46,050 nucleotides of DNA. Source: a virus. Its lineage: Duplodnaviria > Caudoviricetes. The position numbers and the translations under genes were made by a program. Every line of letters begins with the position of its first letter. Position 1 is the first letter of the stretch. Below are positions 10,809-15,063 of the stretch, in pieces. The stretch lies in IMG/VR virus record IMGVR_UViG_3300049058_000009, positions 1 to 46,050 of that record; one strand, written 5' to 3'. A model generated the notes under the pieces. The model searched no databases. It was not told the DNA's origin and saw nothing but the letters and a program-made list of their open reading frames with translations.

Positions 10809-10880
10809 GATGCTGAGAACCTGCATACGCTCATACGCGAGTGACAGACACGTATGTATGCAGGTTCAGATTCCAGCATC
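10809..10880 (+). ncRNA. Long hairpin RNA
   Basis: GATGCTG/CAGCATC plus GAACCTGCATAC/GTATGCAGGTTC. Confidence 0.55.
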
Positions 10881-10913
10881 TAATTAGATGGCCGATAGAA
10901 AAGAGAGTAAAAT

Positions 10914-11230: not shown

Positions 11231-11306
11231 GTCAAACCAATCGGCCATCCAATTAGGTGTTGGAGTCTGGATACGTCGGTTGTCAGCAGAAACCGAAAAT
11301 TTCCTG

Positions 11307-11389: not shown

Positions 11390-11734
11390 ATGGCTAAGAC
11401 TGTTACCAAGAATGCAGAGATTTCTAAGGCTTATGGAAACGATTTGCCTAAGCCGCTTCCTTTCAGCTATTCTTTTGAGGAATTGCAGAAGGGTGACGAG
11501 ATTCCTGCAGATGAGCAGCCAGATGCAGAGGATATTCGCAATCTGGTAAACTCAAAGCGTAATGCTAAGGCTCGTGCTGCTGCTAGCAATCAGGCTCTTA
11601 CTGAGGCTGGTGTGCAGAAGCCTACGCTGGAGTCGCCTGAGTTTAGGCTTGCGTCTATGGTTAAGGTTCTTGTCGCAGCTGGTAAGTCTGAGGCTGAGGC
11701 TACGGAACTGGCCAAGACTGTTCTTGGAATGTAA
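11390..11734 (+). CDS. Hypothetical early protein, likely highly expressed
   Basis: Own promoter, AGGAG RBS, biased codons. Confidence 0.8.
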   Translation: MAKTVTKNAEISKAYGNDLPKPLPFSYSFEELQKGDEIPADEQPDAEDIRNLVNSKRNAKARAAASNQALTEAGVQKPTLESPEFRLASMVKVLVAAGKSEAEATELAKTVLGM

Positions 11735-11816
11735 TACTAGTGCAATGAAACCTTGTGGTGTATAGGTTAACCACAACTCGTCTAAGCGAGTATAAATAGA
11801 CGTTAGGCTTAGAGCG

Positions 11817-11872
11817 GTATCCACTATCAGCAGAGAATATCATAATAAATTCTCTCTCTGCATAGTGGATAC
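11817..11872 (+). other. Long hairpin
   Basis: GTATCCACTAT/ATAGTGGATAC with inner AGAGAAT/ATTCTCT. Confidence 0.6.
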
Positions 11873-11965: not shown

Positions 11966-12071
11966 GTGACACAATTCGTCAGCCTAGAATTAGTGAGAGT
12001 GTTTTGTTTTTTATTTTTTTTTTTTTTTCTAATACTATTTCTAAACTTAGGCAGGTGACACAACTTGTCAG
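11966..12071. promoter_or_regulatory. Two operator-like sites GTGACACAAyTyGTCAG flanking a T15 tract
   Basis: 11966-11982 and 12055-12071 (15/17 identical); second abuts a -35 box. Confidence 0.55.
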
Positions 12072-12373: not shown

Positions 12374-12385
12374 CTATCAGCTTTA

Positions 12386-12540
12386 GCTGGCTAGAGTTGA
12401 GTGTTTAATACTACAGGTTAGCTGGTGTTGACTCCGTGCCACCTATTAGTGACGCATCGAACGGGTCCAGAATGGACAGCTAGTGTCCAAGAAACTAGCA
12501 ATTCGTTACCTGTAGTATTAAGCACTCAATTGTGGCTAGC
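12386..12540 (+). ncRNA. Structured RNA closed by a 22-bp stem
   Basis: 12397-12418 pairs with 12508-12529 (one G-U); internal hairpins GTCCA/TGGAC and GCTAGT/ACTAGC. Confidence 0.65.
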
Positions 12541-12630
12541 CCAAGGGTGATGCCCAATAAGCGCAATAAACAATATAAGGTTTAGTAGTGACCCTGATTC
12601 CCAAAACTACTATTTACCAAGGAGAACAAA

Positions 12631-13278: not shown

Positions 13279-13515
13279 ATGTCAATGGTTTGGAGTCACG
13301 ACAGCACAAATATCTATGATATTGTGACTGCCGAATTCGCTAATCAAGCACTATTGATTCGAGGAACAGGCACACGATTTGGTAAATTTTTTGAATGGAA
13401 AGCTGCTGTAACATCAGAAGGTTGGTATGTTACAATTGGCGATAGAGGTTCTGTTCAAGGTTCAACATTCAATCTTCAGCTTGAAGTAGCTACTGCGGCT
13501 TCAAGATTATTGTAA
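13279..13515 (+). CDS. Hypothetical protein
   Basis: AGGA RBS, start MSMVWS. Confidence 0.55.
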   Translation: MSMVWSHDSTNIYDIVTAEFANQALLIRGTGTRFGKFFEWKAAVTSEGWYVTIGDRGSVQGSTFNLQLEVATAASRLL

Positions 13516-13524
13516 TCACCAAAC

Positions 13525-13596
13525 GGGCCATTAACTCAATGGTAGAGTAGCACCCTTTTAAGGTGAAGGTTACAGGTTCGAGTCCTGTATGGCCCA
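13525..13596 (+). tRNA. tRNA-Lys(UUU), no encoded CCA
   Basis: GGGCCAT/ATGGCCC acceptor, ACTC/GAGT D-stem, CT-TTT-AA loop, TTCGAGT T-loop. Confidence 0.9.
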
Positions 13597-13600
13597 TAAT

Positions 13601-13702
13601 TAGTTAAGTGTTGAGTTGGTTTACTAGGGCAGAGAAGTTAGATAATAGATTCGACGCCTATTAGACTAGCGGCTCTAGTAAACCTATTGAACACTTGAAC
13701 TA
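13601..13702 (+). ncRNA. Long irregular hairpin directly after tRNA-Lys
   Basis: AAGTGTT/AACACTT, TTTACTAGGGC/GCTCTAGTAAA, TAATAG/CTATTA nested stems. Confidence 0.55.
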
Positions 13703-13817
13703 GTTGGTTTCTCTCAATAATCTCGCCGCGAGTATACGGGCATCCTAGATGGATACAGTGAGAGAGAATGTCGGCCCTATGTCGGGCTTAGGGGGAGTAT
13801 TTATATTCCCCCATTAT

Positions 13818-13938
13818 GGAAGTAATAGTTTAATCTCGAAAGAGAGTTACATCTACAGAATATGTCGTAGCTCTGTAATGGCAAAATTACTTAGATTTAT
13901 CTAGGTGTTACAGGTTCGAGTCCTGTTTACTTCCGCTA
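13818..13938 (+). ncRNA. Aberrant tRNA-like RNA with 45-nt D-loop insertion
   Basis: 8-bp acceptor GGAAGTAA/TTACTTCC, intact T-arm, D-stem GTTT/AAAT interrupted by 13835-13879, 6-bp anticodon stem with ATTTAT loop, 3' GCTA. Confidence 0.7.
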
Positions 13939-13952
13939 GAATCGAGAATATT

Positions 13953-14252
13953 ATGAGTAAAGCACGACGGCATACACATAAATATCATCGTGTATCTTTA
14001 GAATTTGGTAATGTGTGGGCGTGCGCGCTTCCAGAATGCACTCACTACATGCCAAAGCATATCGAGCGCCTTGTTATTGGCAAGAAATCTTATTGTTGGC
14101 AATGTGATGAGGTATTTATTCTCGATACTGATGCACTTAAAGAGGATAAACCTCGTTGCATTCCATGTAGAACTGGAATTAAACCTCCTGTGACTGAGAC
14201 TGAAGCACCATTAAGTCCAGAATTAAGGGAGTTGTTAGATAGACTACAATAA
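13953..14252 (+). CDS. Cys/His-rich zinc-finger protein
   Basis: HTHKY, CALPECTH, CWQC, CIPC. Confidence 0.7.
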   Translation: MSKARRHTHKYHRVSLEFGNVWACALPECTHYMPKHIERLVIGKKSYCWQCDEVFILDTDALKEDKPRCIPCRTGIKPPVTETEAPLSPELRELLDRLQ

Positions 14253-14259
14253 AGATAGG

Positions 14260-14346
14260 GCTGGGAATGTGGCTGAATATGCGGATATGCGAATAAGCCA
14301 CTGCCGATAAAATGGCGATAGCGTTACGGCAGCATTTGTTCCCAGC
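14260..14346 (+). ncRNA. Three-way-junction RNA candidate
   Basis: GCTGGGAA/TTCCCAGC, GTGGCT/AGCCAC, TGCCG/CGGCA. Confidence 0.55.
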
Positions 14347-14356
14347 TGCAATATTA

Positions 14357-14448
14357 GGATGCTATCGAATAAAGCTATGCCGCCCAACCTATGCGAGCAC
14401 GGGGTATCGCATGAAAGAATGGGATTAGCTTAAATAAGATAGTTATTC
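14357..14448 (+). ncRNA. Rod-like RNA with internal bubbles
   Basis: GCTATC/GATAGT, AAGCTA/TAGCTT, CCCA/TGGG, ATGCGA/TCGCAT nested. Confidence 0.5.
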
Positions 14449-14976: not shown

Positions 14977-15063
14977 GCCGCTATGGTGGAACTGGCAGAC
15001 ACAAGAGACTTAAAATCTCTCGCTAGAAATAGCATACTGGTTCGATTCCAGTTAGCGGCACCA
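14977..15063 (+). tRNA. tRNA-Leu(UAA) with CCA
   Basis: GCCGCTA/TAGCGGC acceptor, AGAGA-CT TAA AA-TCTCT, long variable arm, ACCA end. Confidence 0.95.

Follow-up and report, generated by a model that had tools for sequence, protein, structure and literature searches.

The 46,050 bases analysed here, in the following called the window, constitute a complete virus record with direct terminal repeats at its ends, in which terminase, helicase, DNA polymerase, primase and capsid genes of a tailed phage can be found. The sequencing runs that contain this phage are soil and rhizosphere metagenomes. The element that is the subject of this study (13818..13938) is located on the plus strand, and the early region around it contains many structured RNAs (Table 1). 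A TROVE gene could not be found in the phage genome, nor could a ligase, endonuclease or integrase among the proteins scanned.

The tRNA-Leu(UAA) of this region is also present in many related phages. TTA accounts for 218 of the 510 leucine codons in 13 large genes of the phage which suggests that tRNA-Leu(UAA) is scarce in the host. Directly 3' of the tRNA-Lys lies a long hairpin (13597-13710; z -6.3, none of 200 shuffles as good); at the matching place, long hairpins that differ in sequence are present in the related loci L102 and L108. Further upstream, a pistol ribozyme (11776-11844, 45.6 bits) follows just 3' of an ORF (11390-11734), and long inverted repeats pair 10867-10896 with 11240-11269, enclosing a 65-aa ORF, and 12381-12418 with 12508-12545. 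A long intergenic T-rich run (11995-12030) was treated as a repeat and skipped in read mapping.

Table 1. Parts of the element and neighbouring features, in positions of the window
Feature	Position	Strand	Remarks
tRNA-Lys(UUU)	13525..13596	+	canonical, neighbour of the element; no encoded CCA
Upstream structured non-coding motif	13693..13813	+	ends in a hairpin; 5' border of the variable slot
Acceptor, 5' strand	13818..13825	+	8 nt, starts GGAAG; alternative reading G-1 plus 7-bp stem
U8-A9 linker, D-stem 5' strand (13828-13831), A14-A15-U16	13826..13834	+
D-loop insert	13835..13879	+	45 nt between positions 16 and 18
Box-A-like 10-mer of the Y-RNA-like module	13861..13870	+	weak match (9.9 bits), suggestive
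G18-G19-C20-A21 and D-stem 3' strand (13884-13887)	13880..13887	+	last pair G-U
Anticodon-position hairpin	13888..13907	+	8 bp, TTTA tetraloop 13896-13899; pair probabilities 0.65-1.0
T-arm	13910..13926	+	canonical; identical to tRNA-Lys 13572-13588
Acceptor, 3' strand (13927-13934), and GCTA tail	13927..13938	+	no encoded CCA
Downstream ORF	13953..14252	+	99 aa, Cys/His-rich, no assigned family; syntenic anchor, starts 14 nt past the element
tRNA-Leu(UAA)	14977-15063		in the structured-RNA-rich early region

The tRNA frame and its insert

The acceptor stem, claimed in a preliminary description to be a perfect 8-bp helix, does consist of Watson-Crick pairs throughout (13818-13825/13927-13934). 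It fits two readings, either the 8/5 helix with G73 of a tRNA-Sec-like molecule or a tRNA-His-like G-1:C73 pair (13818 with 13934) on a 7-bp stem. The Rfam tRNA model, the alignment of which sets position 1 at 13819, matches the element locally with 30.0 bits compared to a gathering score of 29 (E 0.0033 in E-value mode); in the genome-wide Rfam gathering scan and by ARAGORN with default settings the element was not called. U8, G18-G19 in the D-arm, the acceptor stem and the canonical T-arm are all present, the D-stem being weak, and the fold of the whole element reaches a z of -2.7, with one of 200 shuffles as good. The element is thus more than chance and constitutes a real tRNA-frame gene. 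The absent CCA carries little information, because the adjacent tRNA-Lys lacks it as well. TAAT at both insert junctions, the GCTA tail and the D-arm obtained after removal of 13835-13879 (GTTT-AAT joined to GGCA-AAAT) were also found just as claimed.

The claims on folding stood in part. The stems, which had been called intact, can all be drawn on paper, but the fourth D-stem pair is G-U and the predicted ensemble gives the D-stem a probability of about 0.01; forcing it costs about 3 kcal/mol. The T-arm reaches about 0.5, while the acceptor (pair probabilities of 0.58-1.0) and the anticodon-position hairpin are well predicted. The 6-bp anticodon arm with a 6-nt loop and a 3-nt variable loop is one of two readings only, the other being an extension of the arm to 8 bp closed by TTTA. 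The insert does pair into hairpins, but three near-equal folds lie within 0.5 kcal/mol of each other (a single stem of 8 bp, or two hairpins, one of them with a GAAA tetraloop), and folded alone it reaches a modest z of -2.1 with 5 of 200 shuffles as good. A hammerhead, twister, pistol or theta-ribozyme in the insert was considered and dropped, as Rfam gave no support.

The anticodon arm of a decoding tRNA has a 5-bp stem and a 7-nt loop with U33; here an 8-bp hairpin with a 4-nt loop is found in its place, and a valid anticodon loop is missing with the insert in or out. When the insert is deleted in silico, ARAGORN, which does not find the full element, accepts a 76-nt cloverleaf, but labels it 'tRNA-???'. 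The element does not decode. The likeness to tRNA-Sec and tRNA-Pyl that had been pointed out earlier is superficial. An 8/5 acceptor/T helix, a GGAAG...CTTCC acceptor and G73 are shared with bacterial tRNA-Sec (selC; about 20 genome matches), whereas the UCA anticodon is missing, as are the long variable arm and the 6-bp D-stem with 4-nt loop described as tRNA-Sec features (PMC7609411), the 3' end is CTA and not CCA, and the Rfam tRNA-Sec model RF01852 reaches 11.6 of 47 bits. For tRNA-Pyl, a CUA anticodon, a single base between acceptor and D-stem, and the lack of G18-G19 and of TPsiC are reported (PMC7609411), while in the element the linker is 2 nt long, G18-G19 and TTC are present and CUA is absent. 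The G-1 pairing would fit tRNA-His, a GUG anticodon loop being absent.

Archaeal non-canonical tRNA introns are short inserts in a tRNA gene, as is the 45-nt stretch of the element. That this stretch is a short D-loop intron, spliced out to leave a working Sec-, Pyl- or suppressor-like tRNA, is suggested by the cloverleaf of the joined form, by the TAAT at both junctions, by the GGAAG acceptor with G73 as in tRNA-Sec genes and by the unexplained introns of Lak phage tRNAs (PMC6784885). These 'enigmatic introns' are also short tRNA-gene inserts that match no Rfam family; in contrast to them, the element's tRNA has no valid anticodon and its insert is kept in RNA contigs, and the accessible text on the Lak introns does not mention D-loop sites (PMC6784885).

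Three RNA runs (X19, X23 and X12) and three DNA runs (X2, X3 and X4) were aligned over 20 kb; all were selected for containing 13300-14400, and the contigs that they provide carry no information on strand or transcript ends. The metatranscriptome X19 has one contig in the 20 kb (13782-13946), which is identical to the genome and includes the insert. In X23, a metatranscriptome from a different study, the deeper of two contigs (13828-13968) is again genome-identical with the insert present, and adapter at both of its ends indicates that it possibly represents a single molecule. The two contigs of X12, likewise genome-identical, lie downstream of the element (14091-14398). No variants were found within the element in the DNA runs, and a spliced joint appeared in none of the three RNA and three DNA runs at the low depth and contig level of these data. 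The X19 and X23 contigs both extend beyond the predicted mature ends and may derive from carried-over DNA, so that they represent a weak hint of an unspliced transcript. A further genome-identical X23 contig (11575-11712) falls inside the ORF that precedes the pistol ribozyme.

An intron is unlikely, since two metatranscriptomes hold the insert unspliced, no joint was found and the phage proteins scanned include no ligase or nuclease match. In addition, the 45-nt insert shows no group I/II self-splicing core and no known intron family (no Rfam match), and none of the five other D-loop inserts described below has a TAAT junction repeat. As the joined form, too, lacks a valid anticodon and reaches only 11.6 of 47 bits with the Sec model, a working spliced tRNA appears very improbable.

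The neighbouring tRNA-Lys offers another explanation. The 20-nt identity between it and the element (13569-13588 and 13907-13926) was confirmed, and positions 34-37, counted from A21, read UUUA as in tRNA-Lys; the element might accordingly be a decoy derived from tRNA-Lys(UUU) which shields phage and host lysine tRNA from an anticodon nuclease, and a viral Lys(UUU)-like tRNA with a D-loop hairpin (L225) would be in line with this. However, the acceptors of both RNAs have only 2 of 7 bases in common and the T-stem of the element recurs in a tRNA-Leu of the related phage L081 and in the shell L147a, which makes the identical T-arm poor evidence for a copy of tRNA-Lys. Moreover, what would be the anticodon loop is taken up by an 8-bp hairpin that leaves only a tetraloop, and positions 32-33 are G-A. 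We consider such a decoy quite improbable.

A variable slot among conserved RNA motifs

An alignment-based locus search with the downstream ORF family yielded 64 partly redundant loci (21 viral and 43 metagenomic), from all of which the element is absent; a search with the single protein yielded no loci. The two closest homologs of this ORF are P0001 (78%) and P0003 (65%), on Logan contigs of 15.6 and 36.5 kb. Three distinct relatives (L081, L102 and L108) keep the upstream non-coding motif. The slot behind it holds a different long hairpin in L081 and L102 and nothing in L108, and not the normal tRNA that had been named beforehand as the contrary case. The empty slot of L108 implies that the element is dispensable. 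The slot holds exchangeable RNA cargo, and the element is lineage-specific.

A T-loop pattern gave 20 matches in 16 of 45 helicase-related phage records, none of them a shell (a tRNA frame without a standard anticodon arm, as defined below), and the six matches which are not already known tRNAs were inspected with the same result. An Rfam tRNA screen of these 45 relatives was set aside, as it missed the known shell of L210. A BLAST search of 13480-14000 against 50,697 phage records recovered the tRNA-Lys part only, among the matches listed, and the exact 22-nt T-arm/acceptor pattern gave nothing in IMG/VR. A 22-nt similarity in L055 lies within coding DNA and was discarded as chance. No homolog of the element's interior was found anywhere searched, including the related phages for which a covariation check had been proposed, which leaves the insert and the D-stem without covariation. 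The earlier judgement that the structure is not random decay is therefore not established for this element.

Indeed, the element may be an orphan relic, a shell that came from another phage or from a Y-RNA-like array, possibly as a recombination chimera of two D-arms, and that is passively transcribed without a function in this phage. This reading is possible, if somewhat doubtful. In line with it, the element is missing from the slot in all three syntenic relatives and, by the T-loop pattern, from the 45 related records, the D-stem is weak, the insert adopts several states, the phage has no TROVE partner, and a second D-arm-like start (GTAGCTC) is located inside the 3' end of the insert. Inactive irregular tRNAs with destabilised stems have also been described from soil metagenomes (Mukai et al., PMC5389517). 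On the other hand, the acceptor and the T-arm are perfect and all tertiary-core bases have been retained, the element lies amid conserved structured RNAs, and two of the three RNA runs captured it out of a 1.1-kb query.

With a conserved RNA motif before it and a start codon 14 nt behind it, the element could also be a processing signal. Its acceptor/T helix would then bring RNase P and 3' nucleases to the early transcript, which is cut so that the non-coding RNA on the 5' side and the mRNA on the 3' side are released, whatever the interior may be. The acceptor/T half is the best-preserved part of the element, and the 7-bp acceptor of YrlA is reported to be cut by RNase P and to gain CCA (PMC4201824). 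Nevertheless, we regard this explanation as unlikely: the slot of the relatives contains plain hairpins or is empty, both RNA contigs span a predicted cut site, and nearby genuine tRNAs already offer cut sites.

Two further observations concern the surroundings of the slot. The upstream motif is conserved in four phages (window 13693-13813, L081 4570-4693, L102 537-652 and L108 897-1016) and consists of a long stem with compensatory changes by eye, followed by one or two hairpins. A second conserved non-coding motif (window 14258-14352, L081 4883-4985 and L102 1057-1220) has a near-invariant 23-nt core inside a closing stem and a variable arm. Neither motif has an Rfam match.

The 8/5 GGAAG shells and the Ro60 link

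For the comparison with other genomes we used a working group, the 8/5 GGAAG shells, defined by a fully paired 8-bp acceptor starting with GGAAG, T-R-G at positions 8-10, a canonical T-arm and the lack of a standard anticodon arm. The element shows all of these features. The search pattern for the frame (GGAAG, T-R-G, T-loop and CTTCC in 8/5 spacing) fixes 7 of the 13 pairs and was run with the GGAAG acceptor alone, so that an enrichment of GGAAG over other acceptors cannot be read off from the following numbers. The viral scan in three length bands gave 15 rows that represent 14 distinct elements, 11 of which are paired at all 13 positions; of 11 distinct viral elements with long interiors, 10 are paired at all 13, L216 being additional. 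The 36 matches in GTDB genomes were sorted by reading into 20 tRNA-Sec-like genes (two of them duplicates of others), 6 non-Sec shells, 1 ambiguous case and 9 with broken stems. L217 was rejected as a purine-rich repeat, and L218 failed the stem scan.

In 17 shells that were chosen as intact, 41 cells show a change on both sides of one of the six free pairs. The interiors are very diverse, even those of tandem copies within the same phage (L147). In that phage, two tandem GGAAG shells (1501-1765) with near-identical frames and unrelated interiors are located upstream of a PD-(D/E)XK nuclease gene. Full-length matches of the shells L147 and L214 were not found in cultured phages. Among the 16 other shells, two, L203 and L215, carry a hairpin of 18-20 nt at the same D-loop site as the element, and a separate D-loop-arm pattern with 10 viral matches yielded three clear arms (L219, L225 and L228), next to three chance matches, three of other architecture and one doubtful case. 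A tRNA mimic, or a scaffold displaying an RNA domain, had been proposed before; the recurrent D-loop hairpins and interchangeable interiors support it, as does the missing valid anticodon loop.

A further explanation starts from the 3' 29 nt of the element, which resemble tRNA-Sec ends. Since tRNA genes are common integration targets, this stretch could have been copied from the 3' end of a host tRNA-Sec and have served in integration. This possibility is practically negligible, as both acceptor strands and a D-arm are present; a reading of the element as attP was rejected because the complete genome encodes no tyrosine integrase or large serine recombinase domain.

At the level of the group, some shells adjoin TROVE genes or carry the module of TROVE-associated arrays, and this resemblance to the YrlA-type Y RNAs is the interesting result, the function proposed for the element itself being a candidate one. 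In 3 (L210, L213 and L214) of the 10 viral records searched, one of which contained a false match, a TROVE gene lies inside the shell locus. Other shells precede genes for DUF2828 (L146), RING_SCO0854-like (L180 and L199, below the curated cut-off) or vWA (L188) proteins. TROVE loci were also sampled without bias from 16 of 251 Bacteroidota and 7 of 201 Acidobacteriota genomes; the RNAs next to them mostly form arrays of permuted YrlA-like units, which bear a box-N7-WTACTTC module. A linear shell was called in 2 of 16 TROVE samples, neither with an 8-bp GGAAG acceptor, which indicates that linear shells are a minority form. The TACTTC box of the YrlA-like module can be found in 5 of the 16 other shells, and these five look like YrlA-type RNAs that have been opened at the acceptor and not at the Ro-binding stem. 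Of the YrlA-like arrays beside TROVE genes in Bacteroidota and Acidobacteriota (L245-L258 and L284-L289), those that were scored remained well below the Rfam cut-offs. tRNA-like RNAs beside TROVE genes are reportedly treated by Burroughs and Aravind in 2016 and in two reviews from the Wolin laboratory, which may already cover linear shells.

With YrlA-type Y RNAs (PMC4201824; bioRxiv 10.1101/312249) and with Yrl1 and Yrl2 of phage phiLo (PMC12135203) the element has in common that it is a non-decoding mimic with a D-arm, a T-arm and an acceptor. YrlA is described as a circular permutation whose acceptor is closed by a loop and whose Ro-binding stem occupies the anticodon position (PMC4201824), while the element has open ends in tRNA order and its extra domain in the D-loop, lacks the GNCGAAN(0-1)G Ro-binding motif and belongs to a genome without Ro60. 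Its D-stem does not have the GCUC/GAGC sequence of YrlA-like units, no TROVE gene was found in the relatives of the phage (0 of 45 related records), and in the Rfam YrlA model RF02553 the T-arm alone matched, with 9.2 of 69 bits. The box-A-like 10-mer in the insert is expected 0.037 times per 121 nt by chance; a strict two-box spacer test gave 0.022 expected per 83 nt, and a loosened spacer, chosen post hoc after the sequence had been seen, 0.002. Judged by sequence, the match to the Y module appears weak, and the element would not be classed as a Y RNA.

A probable tRNA mimic of the phage

Taken together, we favour the explanation, to which we give about even chances, that the element is an unspliced, non-decoding tRNA-shell mimic which probably acts on a tRNA-handling protein of the host, as a decoy or as a ligand. 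The shell would have been captured horizontally into the variable non-coding slot and would be transcribed within the same early operon as tRNA-Lys, tRNA-Leu and other structured RNAs. The acceptor/T/D frame is predicted to fold the tRNA elbow, a stable scaffold recognised by the host, with the insert of the D-loop retained as an extra arm. Release by RNase P and 3' trimming are established for tRNA-His and tRNA-Sec, both of which have 8-bp acceptors, and the element may be released in the same way by host RNase P and 3' nuclease trimming and may then be excluded from translation. The extra arm would probably bind or divert the host tRNA-handling protein, e.g. Ro60/TROVE, the partner being the least certain step.

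Ro60/TROVE is the best-motivated candidate partner because a phage Ro60, together with its Y-like RNAs, reportedly forms an assembly with the PNPase of the host (PMC12135203). For ROT/TROVE proteins of phages, a 'tRNA-like partner' is mentioned as well (PMC7824862), and the role of the tRNA-like module in Y RNAs is stated to be open (PMC4201824). In its most far-reaching form, the suggestion is that a phage free of Ro60 uses an un-permuted, Y-RNA-like shell with the protein-binding module shifted to its D-loop to capture the Ro60/PNPase decay and repair machine of the host or another tRNA-sensing defence, and that the GGAAG shells constitute a widespread, unrecognised class of natural RNA scaffolds of modular build, traded between phages and RNA-repair loci. 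This version is tentative and rather doubtful.

As a non-decoding tRNA shell with a D-loop arm, the element would be a variety of the known tRNA mimics. In the accessible literature on tRNA-like phage RNAs with D-loop or extended arms nothing pertinent was found. The irregular tRNAs described by Mukai et al. (allo-tRNAs, tRNA0/1/2, E-loop and G-1 tRNA1; PMC5389517) share with it the origin from soil, an extra loop or five-stem junction and an extra acceptor pair, but those tRNAs have 8/4, 9/3 or 7/5 branches and defined anticodons (PMC5389517), whereas the element is 8/5 without an anticodon loop. In addition, the extra loop of irregular tRNAs is located between acceptor and D-stem (PMC7609411), while the 45-nt insert lies within the D-loop. 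The G-1 species among them were charged with His in vitro without insertion of His in the reporter (PMC5389517).

tRNA finders miss such shells: ARAGORN missed the element, and the fast Rfam screen missed even a shell of 53 bits, so that the number of phage non-coding RNAs of this class is probably underestimated. The GGAAG frame ties tRNA look-alikes of phages to Ro60/Y-RNA biology, and with a Ro60-free phage that carries such an RNA it can be tested directly if the tRNA frame functions in the absence of a ring protein of its own. Should the element be a relic, the shell family stands, and the locus would be of little weight. Engineered tRNA scaffolds and aptamer-tagged tRNAs are tRNA frames that bear a foreign RNA domain, as the element is; the latter differs in being natural, in its 8-bp acceptor and in having its cargo in the D-loop. 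For tRNA engineers, natural D-loop arms would point to a second tolerated insertion site.

Other tRNA-like genes were noticed in the course of these searches. In L157 (G044; 1078-1645), a tRNA-Leu-like gene is split by a 500-nt stretch that contains a nested tRNA(UAA) and an ORF with an HNH-like motif by eye. In tRNA-like genes of three viral contigs (L222-L224, 801-879), the anticodon arm has a UUAUA loop and the T-arm is preceded by an extra arm. Finally, L188 (371-1180) and L201 (1001-1283) have arrays of irregular tRNA-like genes without CCA, which in L188 are adjoined by the vWA gene.
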